A DNA stretch of 60,938 nt from an uncultured Chthoniobacteraceae bacterium. Its GTDB lineage: Bacteria; Verrucomicrobiota; Verrucomicrobiia; Chthoniobacterales; CAKUMP01. Location: positions 1 through 60,938 of the forward strand of contig CBDUBV010000003.1 of NCBI GenBank assembly GCA_965365475.1. Reading direction: 5' to 3'. Shown piece after piece: positions 3,362 to 28,934 of this stretch; position 1 is the stretch's first letter; the number at the start of each line of letters is the position of its first letter. The notes under the pieces are model-generated. The model made no database searches. It was given only the letters and a program-made list of their open reading frames with translations, and was not told where the DNA came from. Made by a program: the position numbers and the translations under genes.

Positions 3362-4354
3362 TCACGTCGAGCCATACCATGCTTCAAGCTGCCTGCGGGC
3401 TGAAGCAAATGACAGCCGCTCGCTGGCCAGTTCTCGCGCCTGTTCTATCGTGCGCACAAAATATCCGTCGTCCGTAATCAACTGCTTCGCGCGCTCGAGC
3501 AGCTCGTCATCTCCCACGCGGTCGCCGCTCAAGTCTGGATAAACCTCACGATCCACCGCACCATCTCCGCCTACGCAAGGGATGCCACACAGCAGGGCAT
3601 CGCCTGCGACCTGCCCAGGCACGCGGCTTCGGTCCAGTTGCCACACAAGTCGGTGTTGCGCCATGAGCCGTAGATAGTCGCAGTAGTCCATCCGCTTCTC
3701 CACGGTCCGAAGGCGCGGCAAGCCAATGCTCTCCAGACGCTTCCGGCCTTTCCTGCCATCCAGATTCATGACGGTAACGCTGGTCTCGGTGGCCAGCCCG
3801 CGTGCTGTCACCAAAGCCGCAAGATGCCTGCGAGAAGGAACATCCCACTCTCGCGTGCCGATGAAAACTCCATGCCGCGAAGGGTTCTCAAAATTCCATC
3901 CTGGAATATCGAACGGATAAGGAGTGGGAATGTATGTCGTCCGCGCGGCACCTGCCTGGGTAAAAAAAGGCACCAACTCTGGTGTCGTGGCGATGGCACC
4001 ATCTGCCAGTGAGACCAATTCTTGAAACATCTCCCAAGGTTTCACCTCGCGCAATGTTTCCGCGACCTGGTGCATGCCCGCCTCTTTGAAAGCAAGCATC
4101 GTAGGGTTGCCCGCTCTTTTCAGCCGCCGCATGGCAGCGAGTGCCCGCGATGGATTTCTCCCGATGAGCAGAAGCACCGGGCGCGTGCCGCACTGCGATA
4201 CTTCGCGCAGGAAAGCTCCCCCTGTGCACGCAGCAAGCGCGTGGTAATTTACTGGCGGATGCCATTTCTGCCCCGGCTGTCCGAGCCCGGCAGCGAACTC
4301 CTGATTCGAGTCGTTGCCGCCCGCGTTGACCACCGCCAGTTGGAATGCACTCAT
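3362..4354 (-). CDS. Hypothetical GT-B-fold glycosyltransferase-like protein
   Basis: Coding-like 330-aa ORF downstream of waaA. The C-terminal half has a weak GT-B-like pattern (GVFIGTREWD ... LLCGIPCVGGDG). Start trimmed to ATG 4354 (MSAFQLAVV) because the track start overlaps waaA. Confidence 0.4.
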   Translation of the reverse strand: MSAFQLAVVNAGGNDSNQEFAAGLGQPGQKWHPPVNYHALAACTGGAFLREVSQCGTRPVLLLIGRNPSRALAAMRRLKRAGNPTMLAFKEAGMHQVAETLREVKPWEMFQELVSLADGAIATTPELVPFFTQAGAARTTYIPTPYPFDIPGWNFENPSRHGVFIGTREWDVPSRRHLAALVTARGLATETSVTVMNLDGRKGRKRLESIGLPRLRTVEKRMDYCDYLRLMAQHRLVWQLDRSRVPGQVAGDALLCGIPCVGGDGAVDREVYPDLSGDRVGDDELLERAKQLITDDGYFVRTIEQARELASERLSFASARRQLEAWYGST

Positions 4355-4409: not shown

Positions 4410-5693
4410 TTACAGCTTTCGCAGCAGTTGCGCTGTGCGTTCCGCCGCGCCTCGGTGAGGTGCGAGCACGGCGCAGGCTCCTCGGAGCATCTCAGCTCGC
4501 AGAGCTTCATCCTCCAGCAACTCGGCGAGCACCACCCGAAGCTGCTCGGCATCCGTCACCTGTCTGGCAGCACCTGCTTCGAGCAGCTTCGCGGTGATCA
4601 CAGGGAAATTCTCCATATGCGGACCGCACACCACAGGGCACCCCGCCACCACTGCCTCCACCGGATTTTGTCCCCCGTGAGCGAGCATGCTTTTACCAAT
4701 AAACACCACGGTTCCCACTGCATACCACGCTGCTAGTTCTCCGGTAGTATCCAGAATGAGCACGTCTGGACGCGGCGTGCCCGACGGCGCGGGGAGTGCC
4801 GAGCGTCGCAGCACGGTAAAGCCTGCTTCTGCCAGCTCGCCAGCCAGTGCTTCAACACGCTCCACATGCCGCGGCGCGACGACGAGTAGAGAATCCTCCG
4901 ACCGAATGTCGCGATGGATTTCCGCCAGGAGCATTTCCTCCCCTGCGTGAGTGCTTCCAGCGAGCAGAAGCTGTGTGCGTTCCGACACCCCCAAGCTTGC
5001 AAGCAATTCACGACACCAGCCACCATCCGGCTGCGCGTCACGAGCATGATCGAACTTGATGCTTCCCGTGCAATGCACCCGGCGCGTGTCCACCCCGAGC
5101 AAGCCCCACGTCTGCACATCCTCCAACTCGCACACGCCGATGAAGCTCAGGCGGCGGAAGATTGGGCCGGTAAAAAAACGGAACTTCTCGAATCGGCGTG
5201 CGCTGCGCGGAGAGAGTCGTGCGTTGACCAGTGCCATCGGGATGCCGTTGCGCGCCGCCAGCCACGTGAGATTCGGCCAGACCTCCGCTTCCACCATCAC
5301 GATACGTCTGGGCCGGATCAGATTCATCGCACTTCTCACAAAGGGCAGAAAGTCCACGGGATTATAAATGATTTCCATCCAGTCTTCCGATCGCTCTCGC
5401 GCCAGCGCGAACCCGGTGGATGTAGTGGTGCTGAGCACCAGCTCGAGATCGGGCTCCAGACGTTTCATCTCACGGGCCAATTTCAATGCGATGCCCACTT
5501 CACCTACGCTCACAGCATGCATCCACGTGCAACGCCGTCCGGCGATGCGTTGCCGTACCGCGTGCGAATAAATCCCAAAGCGCTGGCCGAAGCGATGCCG
5601 ATAGTTTCCCCGCCTCAACATGCGCAGTAGGAAACCAGGCAGCATGGCCAGAAAAACAAATGGAAACAGCAGATTGTAGAGGAACTGCGTCAC
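4410..5693 (-). CDS. waaA: 3-deoxy-D-manno-octulosonic acid (Kdo) transferase
   Basis: FLYNLLFPFVFLAMLPGFLLRMLRRGNYRHRFGQRFG ... WMHAVSVGEV ... STTTSTG is the classic WaaA/KdtA N-terminus. GTG start at 5693 overlaps the rsmD stop (GTGA) and gives a typical 427 aa. Confidence 0.85.
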   Translation of the reverse strand: MTQFLYNLLFPFVFLAMLPGFLLRMLRRGNYRHRFGQRFGIYSHAVRQRIAGRRCTWMHAVSVGEVGIALKLAREMKRLEPDLELVLSTTTSTGFALARERSEDWMEIIYNPVDFLPFVRSAMNLIRPRRIVMVEAEVWPNLTWLAARNGIPMALVNARLSPRSARRFEKFRFFTGPIFRRLSFIGVCELEDVQTWGLLGVDTRRVHCTGSIKFDHARDAQPDGGWCRELLASLGVSERTQLLLAGSTHAGEEMLLAEIHRDIRSEDSLLVVAPRHVERVEALAGELAEAGFTVLRRSALPAPSGTPRPDVLILDTTGELAAWYAVGTVVFIGKSMLAHGGQNPVEAVVAGCPVVCGPHMENFPVITAKLLEAGAARQVTDAEQLRVVLAELLEDEALRAEMLRGACAVLAPHRGAAERTAQLLRKL

Positions 5694-6244
5694 GCGTGCA
5701 CCAGGGTGAGGACTTCCGTTTTGCCGTAGCTTTTCGCGCGCACCACCTGCCAGCTTTGACATGCTGGAAGCGGGCGAGCGGGATCTTTTTCCAGGATCAA
5801 GACGCCTTCCGTGTCGAGCAATCGCGGAAGCTCTTCTGATTGCAGAAGTCGCTCCGCATGGTCCGCTGCGCCAGGCTGCATCGAGCGTTTCATATAAGGC
5901 GGATCTGCAAATATAATATCGAATACGCCTTGCGCGTGACGCACCCACGCATGCACATCGGCCCGCACCACTTCGCCTGCAAGCCGCACGCGGGCGAGAT
6001 TGGCGCGGATGCTTTCCGCTGCAGGTTGGTATTGATCAACAAACACAGCGGACGCCGCGCCCCGACTGAGTGCTTCGATCCCGAGAGCACCGCTCCCGGC
6101 AAACAAATCCAGCACACGTGCACCAGGCACCCGCGAACCCAGGCTTGAGAAAATCGCGGCTTTCACTTTGTCCATCGTAGGCCTCACATCGCCCGATGGC
6201 ACATCCAGCCGAAGCCCTCCAGCCTCACCGGCGATCACTCTCAT
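5690..6244 (-). CDS. rsmD: 16S rRNA (guanine966-N2)-methyltransferase
   Basis: MRVIAGEAGGLRL ... RPTMDKVKAAIFSSL ... VLDLFAGSGALGIEALSRGA ... IIFADPPY. Reading frame re-checked codon by codon. Confidence 0.85.
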   Translation of the reverse strand: MRVIAGEAGGLRLDVPSGDVRPTMDKVKAAIFSSLGSRVPGARVLDLFAGSGALGIEALSRGAASAVFVDQYQPAAESIRANLARVRLAGEVVRADVHAWVRHAQGVFDIIFADPPYMKRSMQPGAADHAERLLQSEELPRLLDTEGVLILEKDPARPLPACQSWQVVRAKSYGKTEVLTLVHA

Positions 6245-7662
6245 GGCTCGGGCAACGGCGCGACTTCATCCTCGATCGAAGGGCCTGAACTGCCACCGAA
6301 GAAGCTGCGCAGGACGCGATTTACTTCCTTCTCCAGTTTTTCTCCGATGAACCGCTCGATGAGGTTGGTCCGTGGCCGGTCGAGCGTGCCGGAAATATCG
6401 AAGTCCAGCGCGGCGTAATGTTCATCGGCTTTCTCCAGATTGCTTTTGGCAAGGCGCGGCAGCTTCTTCTGAATTTTTTCGTTAAGAAAAAGTTTTGCAT
6501 CCATGTCGAGGCGACCGCCTTCCCGGATCCATCCGCGTGCCTCCAATTTTAAGTTCGTGGTCGCCAGATACAGGCGTTCCAAACGCACCTCACCACCGCG
6601 CACTTTATATTCCGCTTCGGCGGTGTCCAACCTGAGGTGCGCAATTTCCTCGATCTTCAATGCCTCCCCGATGGTCTTAAGGAAATCGACCTGGCTGATC
6701 TCTCCGCCTACCATGGAGACTTTGCCGGCACCATGCACGCTCTCCGGCTTGCCGGGCAGCGCACGCAGCAGGAAACTTCCCGAGAGCGACCCCTTGAACC
6801 GATCAGAACTCATCCCGCTGGGCATAAGCAGCACCGGCAAAGAGGCGTTTTTAAAATGCACGAACAATTCAGCTGGTGCTTCAGGATCGCGCTCTTTCCA
6901 GACAAAGGTGCCATCCACCGTGCCCCCGGCGAATTCTGCTGTGATCTCACTGAGCTTGAAGAGCCCATTTTTATAATGAAACGGACTGGTGAACTCGGTG
7001 AACTCAATCGCGTCGTCCAGGATCACGCTTGCAATTTGCAGCGTGCCGGTGGCATCCGGCGCCTCTGCCAGCTGGGATTCCACATCGATGCCGGTGAGGC
7101 GCACAACTGGGCGGCGGTGATCGTCGAGATACGTGAGGCGTCCGTCGTCCAAATAAGCGCGCTGCACAGTAGTCGTTCGAGGCTGCTCGGGCGTTGCGGA
7201 GGCAGGAGGCGGCGACTGCTCCACGATCTCCCCCGCAGGCATCGGGCCGGGATCGGGTTGAGGCTGCGGCGTCACGGACGCGACATCTTCGCCAGGCGTG
7301 GGCAGCAAAGTCAGTCCGGGTGAAAGCGTGATCTCCGGCTCTTGCACGCGCACTTCATCGACGAGAAGATCACGACCGAACATCGACGATAGCCTGATCT
7401 TGGCGGTAAAACTTTTCGCCGTAAACAGGTCCGGTCGGCCCTCCTCTCCCGCGATGCGCACCCCGCTCAGGCGCACGCCGCCCCACGGGGTGTAGCTGAT
7501 GCGACGGATCGTGACATCGATCCCGAGTGCATCGTGCAGCCCAGCACTGATGCGGTTTTGCACGGATGAAGATTGCACATAGACATTGATCACGAGCAAA
7601 AGTAACGCGGCCAGCACCACCGGAGCGCCCAGCGCGAAGAGAAGAATTTTGCGATGACTCAT
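6241..7662 (-). CDS. AsmA-like outer-membrane assembly family protein
   Basis: N-terminal signal anchor (ILLFALGAPVVLAALLLLVINVYV) followed by a long beta-rich region with AsmA-like N- and C-terminal patterns. Its stop overlaps the rsmD start (ATGA). Confidence 0.5.
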   Translation of the reverse strand: MSHRKILLFALGAPVVLAALLLLVINVYVQSSSVQNRISAGLHDALGIDVTIRRISYTPWGGVRLSGVRIAGEEGRPDLFTAKSFTAKIRLSSMFGRDLLVDEVRVQEPEITLSPGLTLLPTPGEDVASVTPQPQPDPGPMPAGEIVEQSPPPASATPEQPRTTTVQRAYLDDGRLTYLDDHRRPVVRLTGIDVESQLAEAPDATGTLQIASVILDDAIEFTEFTSPFHYKNGLFKLSEITAEFAGGTVDGTFVWKERDPEAPAELFVHFKNASLPVLLMPSGMSSDRFKGSLSGSFLLRALPGKPESVHGAGKVSMVGGEISQVDFLKTIGEALKIEEIAHLRLDTAEAEYKVRGGEVRLERLYLATTNLKLEARGWIREGGRLDMDAKLFLNEKIQKKLPRLAKSNLEKADEHYAALDFDISGTLDRPRTNLIERFIGEKLEKEVNRVLRSFFGGSSGPSIEDEVAPLPEP

Positions 7663-7756
7663 CAGGTCGGGACCCTATCCCTCCCGCAAGTAAAGTCCAG
7701 TCCAACTCCCGGCCCATGCGGGCGGTGAGCACACAACAGCCGGTAAAAACAGCGCA

Positions 7757-8977
7757 TCAGTGAAAAGAAAGAGTCCCGCCCGGTGATGGCGCGCTTACGA
7801 TCCGCTGAAGCTCCTCAACCACCACGCTGAAGGGTATTCTTTCCTGCTCCAGTCTTGGCGCACTGGCATCCCCCTGCATACCAAGTGCCTCCCAGCACTC
7901 GCGCTCTTCACACGTCAACAGCGGAAGCACCACGCGCCTGGGAGAAGATTCCGTCGTCCACAGCGCGCGGTGACGCAGCAATATCTCCCGCGTCATGAGC
8001 ATCGACTGCGTATGTGGCAGGGCATGCCGAAGCTGATTCAATATCGCAAAGCCATGCGTATCCAGATCGCCCCAGTAAAAAATTTCCCGCGTCCGCAGCC
8101 AAGCCGCGTTGGCCAATGCGCTCCATCCATAGCCAGCGCCAAACACCACCAGGCTCCGCGCACAATCCGGGAACGCGAGAAAGTTTATCTCGTTCTCGGT
8201 GATGAAGACACGGCCCACATCCGGGTCCAGGCTGGCAAAAGCACTCGCATTCATGGTCACGTCCAGCCCGAGACGCTCTGGCGCGATCGCGCTCGCAGTG
8301 TCCAGGAAACGAACCCGGATGCGCTCAGGTTTATCGCGGAATCCATAGCGTCGAGCGAAGCCTTCGGCTCCTCGCGAGCTGGCATCCCACCCGTCAGCAG
8401 GCAGCACACGCTCAAGCAACTCGGAGATGATGCCGCGATGAGTCTCCACCAATTTCGTATGCACACCCGGAGCATCCAACTGGCGTAGAAACACGCCACT
8501 GCGCGGATGATCGCGCACCCAGGCTGTCGCCGCGAGAATTGCCGACCAATCTTTTGCAAGCGTGAGCGCGGTCATACACCGCCGTGCAAGCCAATCCAGA
8601 AGCTCCGGAAACACTTCACGGCACGCGGCGGTCATTTGCAGAAATGTATCCAGCTCGCGCTGCATGTGGATGATCTTCGTAGCAAGTCTGGCGTCAGCAA
8701 TCACCACGGCGGAAGGCATTTGATTTTCCCCAAAAATACGATGCGAAAAGCTGCGCCATTCCACGGAAAAAAGAGTCTGCTCACGCCATGTCGCCGTCCA
8801 GTCCCGCACTTTACTGAAGTCCGCCGTGATCTGCGCAGAGTTTGGGCCTCTGATCGGCAAGCGAAGTGGGAAAAGCCCGTCCTCCCGGATGGTGCTTGCC
8901 AGAATGTCCCCGCGTTGCCAGCGCCGCAACAGCCGACTTCGCACATCAGCAGGAGTTGTCCATCCCGATCCGGTCAT
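7757..8977 (-). CDS. jetD: Wadjet JetD (DUF3322 N-terminal plus DUF2220/Toprim-like C-terminal nuclease subunit)
   Basis: N-terminus WTTPADVRSRLLRRWQRGDIL ... FPLRLPIRGP. C-terminal Toprim-like acidic motifs VFITENEINFLAF and IFYWGDLDTHGFAIL. ATGA overlap with the jetC stop. Confidence 0.85.
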   Translation of the reverse strand: MTGSGWTTPADVRSRLLRRWQRGDILASTIREDGLFPLRLPIRGPNSAQITADFSKVRDWTATWREQTLFSVEWRSFSHRIFGENQMPSAVVIADARLATKIIHMQRELDTFLQMTAACREVFPELLDWLARRCMTALTLAKDWSAILAATAWVRDHPRSGVFLRQLDAPGVHTKLVETHRGIISELLERVLPADGWDASSRGAEGFARRYGFRDKPERIRVRFLDTASAIAPERLGLDVTMNASAFASLDPDVGRVFITENEINFLAFPDCARSLVVFGAGYGWSALANAAWLRTREIFYWGDLDTHGFAILNQLRHALPHTQSMLMTREILLRHRALWTTESSPRRVVLPLLTCEERECWEALGMQGDASAPRLEQERIPFSVVVEELQRIVSAPSPGGTLSFH

Positions 8978-11900
8978 GAGGCTCTTTTTTCCTCCCGATA
9001 CTCTTCGATCGTGAGGTTGCGGAGTTGCGAGTCGCGGCCCTCGGCGTTGTGCACGAACCCCACCGAAGACACGTGCGGCTCGATCACGTGTATTTTTTGC
9101 AATGGCGTGACGATCAGCAACTGGAGGTTTAGTTTTGCAAAAAGCCGCAGTCCGTATTGCGTGGACTCATCCGATCCGCGTCCGAAGGCTTCATCGATCA
9201 CGACAAAGCGAAAAGACCGCGAGCGCACTTGACCCCATTCCAATCCAAATTGGTAAGCCAGACTCGCAGCAAGGATCGTGTAAGCGAGCTTCTCTTTTTG
9301 CCCGCCAGATTTTCCGCCCGAGTCGGAATAGTGCTCGTGCTCCGTGCCGTCCTCGCGCCACCGTTCGCTTGCCGCAAAAGCAAACCAGTTGCGCACATCG
9401 GTCACCTTCCGCGTCCATCGCTTGTCGATCTCGGTCGTTCCTTCACTTCCTCGAAACCGCTCGATGATGGCTTTCACCTGAAGAAATTTCGCTTCCGAAT
9501 ATTGGTCATCTTCCGACCCGGTGAGCGCTCCTTCCGTGCAGGCCCGGAGTTCGCTCTGAAACGCCCGGATGTCCTGGTCGGGCACAGGCGTGGCTTCGAG
9601 CACAATGTAACGAGCGGGATTGTAGTCGATCTCGATGAGCGATTGATTAATGCGCGCCACTCGCTCGCGGATTGTTTCGCGTTGCTGATTCAGATGCGCG
9701 TTGAAATTCGCAATCTCGCGAATCGTATTTTGATTCAGCAGCTTTTTAAACTGCGCCTCGAAGCGCGGAAGATCGTCGCCGCGCAAGCGCTCCAGCAATT
9801 GCCCATATTCCCCGGCAGCTTCGACAGCAGCATCGATCTCGCGCGTCTCCGCCTCAAACTCACGGCGAAATTCGCTCATCCGATTTATCAGACGATCACG
9901 CACCGTGGTGATGGATTTGTCCCGGGAATCTATCTGGCTTTGCAACCATTCTCGCGTCTCTTTCTCACGCGCATCACAGCCCTCGATCGTGATGGCCTTG
10001 TCGCCCAGCGCATCGCTGCGGATCGCGTCCAGGCGTTCCTGCAAAGCTGCCAGGCTCGCGGCATCTGTGCTGGCGATCAGCGCCCGGGTAGTGGCGAGAG
10101 CAGCGTCGTTGTTTTCCATGCGATTCTTGAGCCCGCCGATCTTCTCCGTTTCGCTCGCGTATCTGGCGCTGCCCTCTGCGATGGATTTCTCTACCACGCG
10201 CAATTTCTCATTGAGCTGGCGCAGCACGTCGGATGCGGTCTCGAGCTGCCGACGTTCCTCCTCCAACGCAGCGATCTCCGCAGCCACACTCGCCCAATCG
10301 ATCTCCCGGAACTCGCGATACTCTTCCAGCTTGGACAGCAAGCTCACGCGCTCACGCAATGCCCGCCGCTCGGAACTCGCCTTGCTCAAGCGCGCCGCAA
10401 TCCTAGCGCCTTCAGATTCAATGCGCGCTTTCTGATTTTCAAACGTGGCAATCTTTGTCTCGTTGCTCCAACCCAGGATAAACCGCGACCGATCATCGAT
10501 GCGGTGCCGGTCGTCTTTCTCGTGGCGTTCGCCCGCGCGTTTCATCTGCCCCGCCAGCGTCATGGCATGCGTCTCACGCCGAAACTGCTCGATCGTAGCG
10601 CAGCACGCCACATCGAAACGCAGCGCAAGTTCGCGCTCCATCCATTCGTAAAATGGCGAGTCAGGACGGATTTGCAGCTTGCGAACAATCGAGTCCGGAT
10701 GCAGCTCCACGCCCTCGCTCGCCGCACGCTGGCGGATTCGAAAATACACAATCCGCCCGCGCAAGTGAGTGCGGTCCACCCACTCCACCACCTTGGAATA
10801 ATGCTCATCGGCGACCAGCAAGGAGAGACCGAAATTATGCAGCAGCCGCTCAGCCGCGCCCTCCCACGCTGCATCCTCCGGGCGAATCTGCAGCAGCTCG
10901 CCAGCAAACGGCATGTCCTGGATCGGCACATGGATGGCCGCGCACAACTCTTCACGAACGGCGATTTGTTGCGACGGGATGTTGCTGCGACGCGCCTTCA
11001 AGCTGACAAGCTCTGAGTTCACCGCATCGAGTTCGTCCTGCAATCTGCGCATGCTCACCGTGTCGTCCGTGATGCGGTTCTCCAGGTCGGACTCGGCGGC
11101 TGCTCCGGCCTCTTTCCACGCAGCGATGCGATCATACTGTGCATGGAAAGCCGAAGCTTCTTGCACCATCGGCTCGTCGAGCTTCGCCACAAGTCCGGCG
11201 TAAAGGTCGGCTTTATTTTTGCGCCGGTCTCTCTCCCCGGCGCGCTCATCGATGCGAGCCGCGATGGTGGCGATGCGGTCCCCACCATTATCGGCGATCT
11301 GACGATGAAGGTCCGCCTCGTCGCGCCGCAGTGCAGTCAGCGCATCCTCGATGTCCTGGATGCGGGCAGCGTGCCGTTCGTGCTCGGAGGCAAGCGTCAC
11401 CGCACGGCCTTCCAACAACTCCAGCTTGAGCGTGGCAAAATGCGCTTCGAGAAATTGCCTCGCCCTGCGCAGTTCCTCCACCTCGCCACGCAGCTTCTCA
11501 TGCCGACCGCAATCCGCGACGATGGGCTCCAGCAGCGATACCTGGCGTTTGGCACGGAGCACCGCTGCGTGCGCCCGATCCAGATCATCGAAATGAGCCA
11601 CGAGCGCTGCGATGCGAGCTTCTACATCGAACGGCTCCAGCATGTGCCCACGCACGAAGTCGGTAAGATTGCCCACCGATTTCATGGACACCGTCTGGTG
11701 GAAAAGGTCCAATGCCTGTTCGCTTTCGATCCCAAATCTGCGACGAAACCACGAACTGTATTCCGGGAAAGTATCGAAAGGCTCCGCTTTATTCTGCCGC
11801 AGCCTGCGACGAAGTTTCGCAATGTCCGCATCGAAATCTGCGAAGTCGCCAGCGATCGAGAGATTCTGTTCCGCGCCGACATAGAATCGAGCAGGCTGGC

Positions 11901-12336
11901 CCGCTGGGTCTTTCATCCACAACACACACGCCAGGCTGATCGTCTGATCATAGCCGCTGTTATGGAACACCGCGAGGATGACGGAGAAACTATGAGCCGA
12001 CCTCAACCCCACAGGCTTCGCCGCACCCACGCCGCCCTCCGAGCGCTCGGTGCGATGATAGCCCAGCACATACGAGCGCAGGCTGCGTTCCTTGTGCTCA
12101 GCACCAGCAGCTTTGTTAAAAGCAATCCGGTTCGCAGGCACAAGCAGCGTGGTGATTGCATCGACCAGCGTTGATTTGCCAGAGCCAATGTCGCCAGTGA
12201 GAAGACAGTTGCGACCCGCCGGATGCAGCGTCCACACGCGCTGATGAAAAGTGCCCCAATTATACACCTCCAGCCGTTGCAGACGGAACCCGGTGAGGGC
12301 ATCGTCCGCCGCAAACTCAAGCATCTCCTCACTCAT
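8974..12336 (-). CDS. jetC: Wadjet JetC (SMC/MukB-like ATPase)
   Basis: FRLQRLEVYNWGTF, Walker A LLTGDIGSGKSTLVDAI, about 800 aa of coiled-coil-like sequence, signature-like DSGGKSGGQKEKLAYTILA, Walker B FRFVVIDEAFGRGSD. Start trimmed to ATG 12336 (MSEEMLEF). ATG 12324 is an alternative. Confidence 0.9.
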   Translation of the reverse strand: MSEEMLEFAADDALTGFRLQRLEVYNWGTFHQRVWTLHPAGRNCLLTGDIGSGKSTLVDAITTLLVPANRIAFNKAAGAEHKERSLRSYVLGYHRTERSEGGVGAAKPVGLRSAHSFSVILAVFHNSGYDQTISLACVLWMKDPAGQPARFYVGAEQNLSIAGDFADFDADIAKLRRRLRQNKAEPFDTFPEYSSWFRRRFGIESEQALDLFHQTVSMKSVGNLTDFVRGHMLEPFDVEARIAALVAHFDDLDRAHAAVLRAKRQVSLLEPIVADCGRHEKLRGEVEELRRARQFLEAHFATLKLELLEGRAVTLASEHERHAARIQDIEDALTALRRDEADLHRQIADNGGDRIATIAARIDERAGERDRRKNKADLYAGLVAKLDEPMVQEASAFHAQYDRIAAWKEAGAAAESDLENRITDDTVSMRRLQDELDAVNSELVSLKARRSNIPSQQIAVREELCAAIHVPIQDMPFAGELLQIRPEDAAWEGAAERLLHNFGLSLLVADEHYSKVVEWVDRTHLRGRIVYFRIRQRAASEGVELHPDSIVRKLQIRPDSPFYEWMERELALRFDVACCATIEQFRRETHAMTLAGQMKRAGERHEKDDRHRIDDRSRFILGWSNETKIATFENQKARIESEGARIAARLSKASSERRALRERVSLLSKLEEYREFREIDWASVAAEIAALEEERRQLETASDVLRQLNEKLRVVEKSIAEGSARYASETEKIGGLKNRMENNDAALATTRALIASTDAASLAALQERLDAIRSDALGDKAITIEGCDAREKETREWLQSQIDSRDKSITTVRDRLINRMSEFRREFEAETREIDAAVEAAGEYGQLLERLRGDDLPRFEAQFKKLLNQNTIREIANFNAHLNQQRETIRERVARINQSLIEIDYNPARYIVLEATPVPDQDIRAFQSELRACTEGALTGSEDDQYSEAKFLQVKAIIERFRGSEGTTEIDKRWTRKVTDVRNWFAFAASERWREDGTEHEHYSDSGGKSGGQKEKLAYTILAASLAYQFGLEWGQVRSRSFRFVVIDEAFGRGSDESTQYGLRLFAKLNLQLLIVTPLQKIHVIEPHVSSVGFVHNAEGRDSQLRNLTIEEYREEKRAS

Positions 12337-12964
12337 CGGAACCTCCGGAATCGGCCAGGTAGCGACGATACGCCTCCAATCGCTCGTCAAACTCTGCCAG
12401 CCACTGGGCATCCACAAATGCTTTGAGAATGCGACGCACTTCGTAGGAAGCGACCTGCGACGCGGTGGAGCTTTTCATTTTTCGTATAAATCCCATCTCC
12501 GCAATGCGATTGAGATGAGTTTCCACCTGGTCGGTGAGCCGGGCATCGTTGCTGTTCGCAGGAAGAAAGAGCCGCATCATTTCCGTAATCTCATCGCGCG
12601 TTACCACCAGCCTGGATTCGCCGCCCGAAGCGTCAGATTCCACCAGCTTTTTCCGCAACAACGCGATCAGCAGACTCACCGGAAAAGACAACGGCCGCCG
12701 TGGAAACAAGCGCGGGATTGCACGTGCACTTCCCGCCTCAGCTTCCTCGTTTTCGCACGAACGCAGAAATGCGTAACCCTCCGCCTCATCCAGCACCAGC
12801 TCGAGATGGAGCACCCGCACGTAATCTCGCACCCGAGCGTCGAGAGCGACAAGATCACTCCAGAGCTGACGATCATTTTCCTGGTACAGCACGCCCTTGA
12901 GCAGCGGGATGACCACCGCAGAAAGCGCAGGTTCTGCTTCGGGGATCGGCTGCGAAGAGTCCAT
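12329..12964 (-). CDS. jetB: Wadjet JetB (DUF4194, MukE/kleisin-partner-like)
   Basis: Acidic 211-aa protein: SAVVIPLLKGVLYQENDRQLWSDLVALDARVRDYVRVLHLELVLDEAEGYAFLRS is the DUF4194 pattern. Position between jetA and jetC supports the call. Confidence 0.8.
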   Translation of the reverse strand: MDSSQPIPEAEPALSAVVIPLLKGVLYQENDRQLWSDLVALDARVRDYVRVLHLELVLDEAEGYAFLRSCENEEAEAGSARAIPRLFPRRPLSFPVSLLIALLRKKLVESDASGGESRLVVTRDEITEMMRLFLPANSNDARLTDQVETHLNRIAEMGFIRKMKSSTASQVASYEVRRILKAFVDAQWLAEFDERLEAYRRYLADSGGSDE

Positions 12965-12967
12965 ATG

Positions 12968-14440
12968 TCAGCGCATCTTACTTTTTAAAAAAATCACCCG
13001 TGGCATCCGCACGGATTTTGAGAGGACGGTGCCGTCCTCGCCCGCGCTGGACCACGCAATCACGTCCTCGGCGGATTCGTCCACCGTGCTCGTGAAGGAA
13101 GTGTGAGCGAGTTCCAGATAAGCCACGATCTCCGCGAGTCCATGCTCCGGGGGCCGCGCTTCGACAAGCTGGCAGAGTGTGATTTGTTCGGTGTCTCTCA
13201 GGGTGCGTTCAATATGCGAAGTGAGCACTTTTTTGTCCACATAATGCACGGCGAAAAGTGCCGCAGCATCGATCTCCTCCCCGCTTGCGTTCACGATTGC
13301 AGCAGCCAGCGACGGTTTGAACGGAGGCGCAAACAGCCGCCGATCGAAGGGCAGCGCGATGGCAGCAGACGTATCGCCTATTTCCATAAATGCCGCATAG
13401 GGAGGTGCCGACTCACGCACAGCCAGAGCTTTGCTTTCAATGCTGCGCAGCAGGTCCATGATGCGCCGGTTCTCCAGCCATGCCTGGTCGTCCAGAAACC
13501 GGCGGAGTTGTTTCGACAGCTCCGCCACCGTGCGCTGGGTATGATCCCCCGCTTGCAGCCAATCGTAATGAACCCGTCGCAGCCGAGGGTCCGGTTCGGT
13601 GGCTGCAATCGCCGGGTGCTCCAGCACGGCGTCAAGCATCTGAGTTAGCTCGTGCTGGCGGCTGTCGGACATGAGAAAATCCCAGAATGCACGAAAACTG
13701 CGGCCCTGATCGGAATCGTCAATCGCATCTTTGCGCCCCAATATTTCATCGAGCAGCGCAGCCTTGCCGCCCTCCCAGCGTGCGATGCGTTCGCGCACCG
13801 AGCGATCCAGCAGACGGAAGTTTTGCTCAACCTCGCGGAAATCCGAGAGCAGATCACGGGCGAGAATTGTAAACTGCTGGAAGCGGTCACGCATGGCAGT
13901 GCCGTCAAACACAGCGACTTCACCGGCCAGGATTTGCGCGATCTCGGCATCGATACTTTCCCGGCGTTTTTGCAGCTCCGCGATGCGCACCTCGGGGTCA
14001 CTCTCAGACCCTACGATCAACTGCCGCAGCAGATCGAACAACAGCAGAAGTCGGGACTCCGTGCCCACGAACGTGCGCGCTTTCAGTTCGCCGAGCCAGG
14101 AGATGGCACGTTCTACAGCAGGCACGAGGTCATAGTTGGGCTCGTCTGTGCCGGGCGGATAGAATTTCCTGAGCCAGCCTTTGTCGGGCGATGCCCAATC
14201 GGTGAGGTATTCGCGGGCGGAGCGGGGGAAAGCGTCCGGGCCGAGTCGTTCACGCAAGATGAAAAGATCGTCCTCCAGAGCTTCGGCAAGGTCCGCCTCG
14301 GCGATCTGGCGCACATTGGGTTGAATAAAAATCCGATGAAGAAACGAGAGCACCAGCGGCGCATGATCCGAGCGCAGCACTTTCCAGGAAGGATGTTCCT
14401 TCTGCAGAATGCGGAGCGTATCAAAATCGAAACCGGCCAT
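12968..14440 (-). CDS. jetA: Wadjet JetA (DUF3375, MukF/kleisin-like)
   Basis: FDFDTLRILQKEHPSWKVLRSDHAPLVLSFLHRIFIQPNVRQI ... YLTDWASPDKGWLRKFYPPGTDEPNYDLVPAVERAISWL is the DUF3375 pattern. First gene of the operon. Confidence 0.85.
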   Translation of the reverse strand: MAGFDFDTLRILQKEHPSWKVLRSDHAPLVLSFLHRIFIQPNVRQIAEADLAEALEDDLFILRERLGPDAFPRSAREYLTDWASPDKGWLRKFYPPGTDEPNYDLVPAVERAISWLGELKARTFVGTESRLLLLFDLLRQLIVGSESDPEVRIAELQKRRESIDAEIAQILAGEVAVFDGTAMRDRFQQFTILARDLLSDFREVEQNFRLLDRSVRERIARWEGGKAALLDEILGRKDAIDDSDQGRSFRAFWDFLMSDSRQHELTQMLDAVLEHPAIAATEPDPRLRRVHYDWLQAGDHTQRTVAELSKQLRRFLDDQAWLENRRIMDLLRSIESKALAVRESAPPYAAFMEIGDTSAAIALPFDRRLFAPPFKPSLAAAIVNASGEEIDAAALFAVHYVDKKVLTSHIERTLRDTEQITLCQLVEARPPEHGLAEIVAYLELAHTSFTSTVDESAEDVIAWSSAGEDGTVLSKSVRMPRVIFLKSKMR

Positions 14441-14448
14441 TTATTTAC

Positions 14449-14465
14449 TTCGGAGTTCGGAGTTC
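14449..14465 (-). repeat. Tandem heptamer (GAACTCC)x2+GAA in the jetA 5' leader
   Basis: The minus strand reads ACGCGGCGAACTCCGAACTCCGAAGTAAATAA-ATG(jetA). Near-identical to the motifs at 23634 and 39262. Confidence 0.8.
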
Positions 14466-14749
14466 GCCGCGTTCGTTAGATCTTCCAGTATTGGTCGAAC
14501 TTTCGCATCAGCTCGGTGATCTGAGTGAGGTCTTGCGGCAGAGGTGGCGCGGAAAGAGAAGCTAATCGGAGTAGAGTCAGTCTGCGGAGATCTCAGTGGG
14601 ATGGTTTGGGTTGTAGGTTGATATTGCTTTGGGGTCAAGGGCGCGCTGGGCTTGGTTCCGTGTAAAATACATCCATTCGCCTGCCGAGCGAGGATTGGTC
14701 AACAATAGTGCTTGGCCAGAGGCGCTGTATTCATGTTAGATGCGGCTTG

Positions 14750-15496
14750 ATGTCTCCCAAATCCCGTAAGTCTTCAGCCGCAGTGAAACTTAAATATCGC
14801 CGCGTGGTTATCAAACTTAGTGGCGAAGCTCTCCGCGAGGTCGGCACTGGAGACAATATCTCCCCACAAATTGTTAAAAGCATCGCGCAGCAGATCAAAG
14901 CGATCAAAGAACTCGGCATTCAAGTCGCCATCGTCATCGGCGGTGGCAACATCTGGCGCGGCCTCTCTGCAAGTCATCGCGGCATGGACCGCACCACTGC
15001 AGACTACATGGGCATGCTGGCCACCGTGATCAATGGCTTGGCCATCCAAAGCCAGCTTGAGCAGCTTGGAGTCGAGACCCGCGTGCAGACTGCAATCGAG
15101 ATGAAAAATGTGGCTGAACCGTTCATCCTGCGTCAGGCAGTGCGCCATCTCGAGCTGGGCCGCGTGGTTATTTTTGTGGCTGGCACGGGCAATCCTTACT
15201 TTTCCACGGACACCACTGCCGCTCTGCGGGCCAGTGAGATTCGGGCAGAAGTCATAATCAAAGCCACCAAGGTGGATGGCATTTATGACAGTGATCCTGT
15301 GAAAAATCCGAACGCCAGGAAGTTCGAGCGTTTGTCCTTCCGCGATGCCATCAGCAAGGAACTCAAAGTTCTGGATTCCACGGCCTTTGCATTATGCATG
15401 GAAAATAATGTCCCCATCATCGTGCTCAACATGACCGAGAAAGGCAGCATTCAGCGGGCACTAAGCGGGGGCAAGGTCGGCACCCTGGTAAGTTGA
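14750..15496 (+). CDS. pyrH: UMP kinase
   Basis: [13 protein letters not shown] ... [13 protein letters not shown] ... [14 protein letters not shown] ... [22 protein letters not shown]. Start trimmed to ATG 14750. Confidence 0.95.
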
Positions 15497-28860: not shown

Positions 28861-28934
28861 GCACCCGTAGCTCAGCCGGATAGAGCAACGGATTTCTAAT
28901 CCGTGGGTCGCAGGTTCGAGTCCTGCCGGGTGCG
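28861..28934 (+). tRNA. tRNA-Arg (anticodon TCT), CCA not encoded
   Basis: Hand-folded cloverleaf. Acceptor GCACCCG/CGGGTGC, D stem GCTC/GAGC, anticodon stem ACGGA/TCCGT with loop TTTCTAA, T stem GCAGG/CCTGC with TTCGAGT loop, discriminator G. Confidence 0.9.

Follow-up and report, generated by a model that had tools for sequence, protein, structure and literature searches.

JetABCD (Wadjet) systems act by loop extrusion and DNA cleavage, a mechanism described in four reports (10.1101/2022.10.04.510915; PMC10889018; 10.1101/2023.11.03.565488; PMC10586767). In the Escherichia coli system, mutation of the JetD residues E248, D290, and D292 kills cleavage, and the E1022Q substitution of the Walker B glutamate of JetC abolishes restriction (10.1101/2022.10.04.510915). 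For MksG, the nuclease of the Corynebacterium glutamicum MksBEFG system, one study (PMC10123090) reports loss of nuclease activity in the E236A and D279A variants, a flexible hinge region, and DNA cleavage in vitro without MksBEF, whereas the activity of E. coli and Pseudomonas aeruginosa JetD strictly required other factors. Here, we analyse an operon of this kind in a stretch of 60,938 nucleotides (nt) from an uncultured Chthoniobacteraceae bacterium (contig CBDUBV010000003.1 of assembly GCA_965365475.1; the whole stretch is referred to below as the window). With a probability that we put at about 0.9, the region 7757-14440 is a complete, intact type I Wadjet system, JetABCD (= MksBEFG, EptABCD), as judged from its predicted proteins; it would be an ordinary, uncharacterised, and probably active copy of a known system. 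The operon consists of the following genes (lengths in amino acids, aa):

12968-14440, minus strand: jetA, 490-aa kleisin-like subunit, DUF3375
12329-12964, minus strand: jetB, 211-aa acidic KITE/MukE-like subunit, DUF4194/MksE
8974-12336, minus strand: jetC, 1120-aa (counted from ATG) SMC/MukB-like ABC ATPase
7757-8977, minus strand: jetD, 406-aa nuclease subunit, DUF3322 plus Toprim (JetD_C)

The order jetA-jetB-jetC-jetD on one strand, tightly packed over the span 7757-14440, is seen both in the list of open reading frames (ORFs) and in the sequence itself. An earlier note on this DNA had described four co-directional minus-strand ORFs of these sizes, and the ORF list contains them at these coordinates; the junctions, too, are exactly as it gave them. 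At jetA/jetB the sequence reads TGA-CAT-ATG, with a gap of 3 nt; at jetB/jetC the ATG of jetC lies inside the end of jetB (ATGAGTGA), with an 8-nt overlap, which would become a 4-nt gap if jetC began at its second ATG (M32 of the long ORF discussed below); and at jetC/jetD a 4-nt overlap, ATGA, places the start of the intact jetD over the stop codon of jetC. The gene junctions are translationally coupled, and the four genes are predicted to form a single operon. Antisense to the jet genes run long plus-strand ORFs, the largest of 619 aa (9157-11016, 11143-12174, and 13652-14479); they are taken as artefacts of GC-rich coding DNA.

In the mechanical ORF list, jetC begins at a TTG codon, reaching position 12417 and a length of 1147 aa. 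This longer start was rejected in favour of the 1120-aa one, because the ribosome-binding site GGAGG stands 5 nt upstream of the ATG at 12336, the alignment with the PADLOC JetC1 model starts at residue 30 of the long ORF, and an independent gene call on L001, a 99.8% identical contig, also gives 1120 aa.

All four proteins match the Wadjet families of Pfam and PADLOC over their full length, and solved structures as well, which bears out the claim of the earlier note that the operon is a complete type I Wadjet JetABCD. The profile search and defence annotation it had proposed as a check yielded matches to DUF3375, DUF4194, SMC-head, DUF3322, and the type I PADLOC models. JetA, expected to be DUF3375-like, matches this family over the full length (7.9e-150, residues 13-484 covered), has JetA1 as its best PADLOC model (4.5e-211), and matches in sequence the solved JetA chains 8dk1_A (2e-24) and 8q72_E (1.7e-20). 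JetB, expected to be an acidic DUF4194-like protein, has an isoelectric point of 5.0 and matches DUF4194 (8.9e-46), MksE (1.8e-16), JetB1 as the best PADLOC model (1.5e-87), and, in sequence, solved JetB 8dk1_E (1.2e-5). JetC matches PADLOC JetC1 with E=0 and 1593 bits, residues 30-1146 of the long ORF corresponding to positions 4-1119 of the 1123 in the model; Pfam AAA_29 (1.3e-25) and SbcC_Walker_B (3.2e-25); and solved JetC in end-to-end alignments (8dk2, 3.8e-69; 8as8, 2.8e-64). JetD matches DUF3322 in its N-terminal part (2.6e-52) and the JetD_C Toprim domain in its C-terminal part (2.6e-47), and among solved structures it matches MksG 8b7f (3.8e-29) and JetD 8q72 and 7til (both ~1e-15) in sequence.

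These E-values lie far beyond chance, which they rule out as an explanation of the family matches. As for the subtype, all significant PADLOC matches of JetA, JetB, and JetC are to "1" models, and for JetD the best model is JetD1, with 2.5e-134 versus 4e-5 to 3e-4 for the JetD3 models. The operon falls in the established type I Wadjet family and, as the earlier note had said, does not form a new one. NCBIfam has no specific model for any Jet subunit and gave weak generic SMC matches only. Lamassu was considered and rejected: the LmuB matches of JetC are weak and partial (6.5e-9 at residues 44-92, the N-terminal P-loop, and 9.2e-5 at residues 672-929, the coiled coil, in long-ORF numbering), and there is no LmuA.

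The motifs listed in the earlier note (GDIGSGKST, SGGQKEKLAY, FRFVVIDEAF, ENEINF, and WGDLDTHGF) were all found in the translations, and alignment to solved structures upholds its claim that the catalytic residues are intact. JetC has the layout Walker A, long coiled coil with hinge, SGGQ signature, and Walker B. Its Walker A motif GDIGSGKST (K54) aligns with GPTGSGKTT of solved JetC; in the signature SGGQKEKLAY (SGGQ at 1010-1013), SGGQKE aligns with SGGEKE; and in the Walker B motif FRFVVIDEAF (D1048, E1049), FVVIDEAF aligns with IILDEAF of E. coli JetC, E1049 being paired with the Walker B glutamate E1022, and also with VLDQAF, the P. aeruginosa head construct in which E is replaced by Q. 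The ATPase residues of JetC are, by these alignments, intact. The metal-binding residues of JetD are E261 (in ENEINF) and D304 and D306 (in WGDLDTHGF). In the alignments, E261 of ENE stands opposite the alanine of mutant chain 8q72_M (E248A), ENE of PA14 JetD, and the MksG glutamate, and D304 and D306 of DLD stand opposite the E. coli JetD residues D290 and D292. E261, N262, E263, D304, and D306 are invariant among 34 homologues, down to 46% identity, and the catalytic residues of JetD are likewise intact by alignment.

The structure prediction that the earlier note had suggested as a test of the Toprim fold places JetD closest to MksG and JetD. The AlphaFold2 model has a mean predicted local distance difference test score (pLDDT) of 87.8, and in the Foldseek search against PDB the only strong matches are MksG (1.8e-23) and P. 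aeruginosa JetD (1.7e-19). The global template modelling scores (TM-scores) are 0.43-0.54, at 22-25% identity to the characterised systems in the structural alignment; these modest TM-scores probably reflect a hinge between the two domains of the modelled protein.

Beyond the observed gene content and order, full-length homology, intact ATPase and metal-binding residues, JetD fold, and the purifying selection described below, the mechanism is carried over by homology from the E. coli GF4-3, P. aeruginosa PA14, and C. glutamicum systems. JetC (SMC ATPase), JetA (kleisin), and JetB (KITE) would form a dimer-of-dimers motor that recruits a JetD dimer, as we infer because the proteins are homologous over their full length to those in 8as8, 8q72, and 8dk2. 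The motor would load on DNA and use ATP to extrude loops; where the DNA is a small circle (up to about 100 kb), extrusion would be completed, the two motors would meet, and the Toprim nuclease JetD would be licensed to cut, destroying incoming plasmids, while linear DNA and the far larger chromosome would escape cleavage. Assembly, loop extrusion, selectivity for circular DNA, and plasmid restriction in this organism are thus expected by analogy, and the sequence gives no reason to suppose that the mechanism differs from the characterised one.

The operon lies between pyrH and asmA/rsmD/waaA, a placement proposed earlier and now confirmed by Pfam matches of the flanking genes. The neighbouring features are:

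3362-4354, minus strand: 330-aa ORF adjoining waaA, no Pfam or PADLOC match
4410-5693, co-directional with the jet genes, downstream: waaA (Glycos_transf_N)
5690-6244, co-directional with the jet genes, downstream: rsmD (Cons_hypoth95)
6241-7662, co-directional with the jet genes, downstream: asmA-like gene (AsmA/DUF748 family)
7663-7756, minus strand: 94-nt spacer from the jetD stop to the asmA-like start
14441-14749, no strand assigned: 309-nt spacer between the divergent jetA and pyrH, presumed operon promoter region
14750-15496, divergent, upstream of jetA: pyrH (AA_kinase)

Beyond pyrH follow genes for a fatty-acid desaturase, a sulfatase, two GTPases, and pyruvate phosphate dikinase. Apart from the spacer 14441-14749, there is no sizeable non-coding stretch upstream of jetA. 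In the spacer 7663-7756 no terminator-like site was found, and its fold is no stabler than that of shuffled sequence (z = 0.08); since a terminator is lacking there, read-through from jetD into asmA-rsmD-waaA is possible. The integrase, transposase, transfer RNA (tRNA), flanking repeats, and compositional break that the earlier note did not see at the operon are indeed absent. No mobility genes occur among the operon flanks, sequences flanking the operon share short chance matches and no meaningful repeats, and the only tRNA in the window, which is also its sole Rfam match, is at 28861, ~14 kb away. The jet genes have a G+C content at third codon positions of 0.63-0.68 and a codon-usage distance inside the window range, and ten other large ORFs of the window have no PADLOC match. 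A recently integrated genomic or defence island was rejected, there being no mobility gene, repeat, nearby tRNA, compositional signal, or other defence genes.

The host lineage is poorly sampled, with no near relative sequenced. For PyrH, the highest identity found among 5.8 billion proteins is 76-77%, and that to the best representative genomes (metagenome-assembled genomes of Spartobacteria, Chthoniobacterales, and Verrucomicrobiota) is 70-72%; the AsmA-like protein has three homologues only in the same protein set, 27-32% identical, one of which carries the JGI label "type II secretion system protein N", and a representative-genome scan with it found no relative. The comparison of the pyrH-asmA interval that the earlier note had recommended was run on pyrH loci and on asmA relatives, and yielded no relative with Wadjet at this position. 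The representative-genome scan with PyrH gave 80 loci, many from Verrucomicrobiota, and all were free of jet and asmA genes within 10 kb; the three nearest PyrH contexts (76-77% identical) have no jet or asmA genes nearby. Two of these three (L091 and L092) have the usual pair pyrH-frr; in the window, pyrH is followed by the desaturase gene, with no frr. Likewise, the three asmA relatives all lack Wadjet at this position. L004 preserves the whole asmA-rsmD-waaA block, the other two asmA contigs being too short to contain all of it, and in L004 and L006 a divergent diacylglycerol-kinase-like gene (DAGK_cat) lies upstream of asmA, with neither Wadjet nor pyrH. By these comparisons, synteny breaks at the Wadjet site in a lineage-specific manner, and does so on the pyrH side too. 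As there are only three distant AsmA homologues, a fine-scale synteny test with asmA is impossible at present.

The closest operons come from metagenomes and from metagenome-assembled genomes of the Akkermansiaceae, Luteolibacter, and Haloferula type (L002, L003, L007, and L009), with identities of 75-82% for JetC, 69-80% for JetA, 68-77% for JetB, and 57-65% for JetD. These Verrucomicrobiota operons have the same gene order as the window; their neighbours, unlike those in the window, are AbiEii, RhuM, and PIN genes, a DDE transposase remnant, HNH_2, an AAA_21 ATPase, YknX, and PaaX. The contexts of the nearest Wadjet operons are partly defence-island-like. A tblastx comparison of the related Wadjet loci with the window gave one doubtful common gene, at ~37% identity. 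Because the closest operons (57-82% protein identity) sit in different neighbourhoods, the cassette is considered mobile, and by this comparison it has clearly moved horizontally. Acquisition was not recent, since synonymous sites are saturated relative to the nearest homologues (proportion of synonymous differences ~0.75) and composition is host-like. The site in the window is, from the loci compared, a lineage-specific insertion point of a mobile cassette and not a demonstrably ancestral locus. Of the old, stable residence proposed in the earlier note, the part that stands is that the arrival was not recent, given no mobility genes or repeats, host-like codons, and saturated synonymous sites; the relatives compared, none of which has Wadjet there, speak against ancestral residence.

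Some of the related operons contain additional genes. In L002 (4592-5222 and 9303-9970) and L003 (9302-10004), pairs of a small ORF and a PIN gene (in L003, ribbon-helix-helix plus PIN) are nested within the operons; these toxin-antitoxin-like pairs occupy the jetA/jetB and jetC/jetD intervals. The window operon has no such nested pairs. In L008, a JGI metagenome contig, jetC is split into 221 and 840 aa (5660-8844), either by disruption of Wadjet or by an assembly error; the L007 operon, which matches it in other respects, has an intact jetC (1118 aa).

An exact look-up did not find the window JetD sequence on record; a 99% identical protein led to L001, an ENA metagenome contig with the gene arrangement of the window and 99.81% identity to it over 18,987 nt. 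Between the two, waaA, rsmD, asmA, pyrH, and the desaturase and sulfatase genes are identical, and the flanking housekeeping genes (6.6 kb) show 0 substitutions versus 9.1 expected. The genes jetA, jetB, and jetC together have five synonymous and no non-synonymous differences. In jetD there are six synonymous and four non-synonymous differences, i.e., 10 of the 26 substitutions versus 1.7 expected, partly in two clusters (7878-7919 and 8870-8885); the hypervariable jetA-pyrH spacer has 6 substitutions (0.4 expected) and indels of 9 nt and 1 nt. Binomial values overstate the significance of these excesses, as clustered sites are not independent. The pile-up in jetD and the spacer could reflect recombination tracts, diversifying selection, or assembly from a mixed population.

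In the related operons, the ratio of non-synonymous to synonymous substitution rates (dN/dS) is 0.06-0.12 for jetABC and ~0.15-0.16 for jetD; the operon is, on these estimates, under purifying selection and not a relic. Judging by the compared sequences, jetD evolves faster than the other subunits throughout the clade: L002 and L003 are 94% identical in JetA, 89% in JetB, 93% in JetC, and 78% in JetD. The synonymous rate (dS) of jetD is 1.6-1.7 for L002 and L003 each versus L007, about twice the 0.67-0.97 of jetABC, and is modestly higher for L002 versus L003 (0.75 versus 0.5-0.6). Independent exchange of jetD is suggested by the approximately twofold excess in two of the three operon pairs. 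Together with the higher dN/dS, the toxin-antitoxin-like pairs at the jetC/jetD boundary, and the clustered differences from L001, this dS excess leads to the conjecture, in our opinion rather unlikely, that, in this clade of verrucomicrobial Wadjet systems, jetD may be a fast-evolving module that can be exchanged on its own. If it were, an ongoing arms race with anti-Wadjet factors aimed at JetD would be implied, and the window cassette may also be transcriptionally fused to the essential asmA-rsmD-waaA envelope operon.

The operon might instead encode a chromosome-organising, Mks/MukBEF-like housekeeping condensin and not a defence system. It is embedded among housekeeping genes, ten further large ORFs have no defence match, the absence of a terminator before asmA allows for read-through into asmA-rsmD-waaA, and P. 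aeruginosa MksBEF contributes to chromosome organisation, according to PMC10586767. The SMC-kleisin-KITE architecture is, moreover, common to both, and the Pfam MksE model matches JetB. However, MukBEF and condensin-type MksBEF have no nuclease subunit, whereas JetD is present here, intact, and under purifying selection; its presence therefore places the window operon in the defence branch, and a condensin-only system was rejected on account of the intact jetD gene. In addition, all four proteins match Wadjet type I models best, and the operon, unlike a core condensin, is missing at this position in every relative examined and moves between contexts. We consider a housekeeping condensin very improbable. 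A more modest departure would keep the machinery and change its main targets to other small circles, such as circularised phage genomes, phage-plasmids, or excised integrative elements. Recognition by DNA size and shape, and not by sequence, makes any small circle a formal substrate (10.1101/2022.10.04.510915; PMC10586767), and fast evolution of jetD would fit an arms race with inhibitors borne by mobile elements; it is plasmid restriction that is documented, though, the available portions of 10.1101/2022.10.04.510915, PMC10889018, and PMC10586767 contain no Wadjet phage protection, and nothing in the window bears on target range. Such a shift of targets is unlikely.

That the operon is a decaying or silent relic that has lost its function is the least probable of the alternatives, although no recognisable sigma-70 promoter was found when the consensus was sought in 14441-14749, this upstream spacer is hypervariable with indels relative to L001, and four of the jetD differences between the window and this near-identical contig are non-synonymous. 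There is no need for a verrucomicrobial promoter to follow the E. coli consensus, the four ORFs are full-length relative to the profile models with every catalytic residue kept, and the jetABC differences from L001 are all synonymous. The missing promoter match also counts against an active type I Wadjet system, and two further points do so. The identity of JetD to the characterised systems is low (22-25%), so that the size limit, the metal preference, and the dependence of JetD on JetABC could differ from those systems; MksG by itself cleaves DNA in vitro, unlike JetD of E. coli and P. aeruginosa. Furthermore, activity here, as for any verrucomicrobial Wadjet, is a prediction from sequence.

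With the type I Wadjet assignment retained, the locus has little general value, since this type is structurally and mechanistically well characterised and standard annotators would call the operon at once. In practical terms, transforming the lineage with small circular plasmids is expected to be difficult, and deletion or mutation of jetC or jetD, or the use of linear or integrating vectors, would be a route to genetic tractability; a Wadjet bypass of this kind is reported for other non-model bacteria in PMC12287153 and PMC12645576. The fast and perhaps modular evolution of jetD and the nested toxin-antitoxin-like pairs could be taken up in comparative work on how Wadjet evolves and on counter-defence.

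Compared with the known systems, the window operon shows the same four subunits, gene order, and domain families as Wadjet of E. coli GF4-3 (8as8, 8bfn, and 8q72) and P. aeruginosa PA14 (8dk1-3 and 7til). JetC has 1120 aa, versus 1096 aa in E. coli GF4-3 and 1119 aa in P. aeruginosa PA14, and both JetC and JetA align full-length. The distance in sequence is considerable, JetD being 22-24% identical in the structural alignment and the JetB match reaching 1.2e-5. The genomic setting differs as well: the window operon is chromosomal, among housekeeping genes of an uncultured verrucomicrobium, whereas the E. coli operon is plasmid-borne according to the title of PDB 8q72. In C. glutamicum MksBEFG, MksG (8b7f) is the best solved match to the window JetD both by sequence (3.8e-29) and by fold (1.8e-23), with the metal-binding E and D residues conserved at an identity of ~25%. 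Catalytic motifs identical with those of E. coli GF4-3 and P. aeruginosa PA14 are seen throughout, i.e., Walker A, SGG[QE], and hhhhDE in JetC and E...DxD in JetD.

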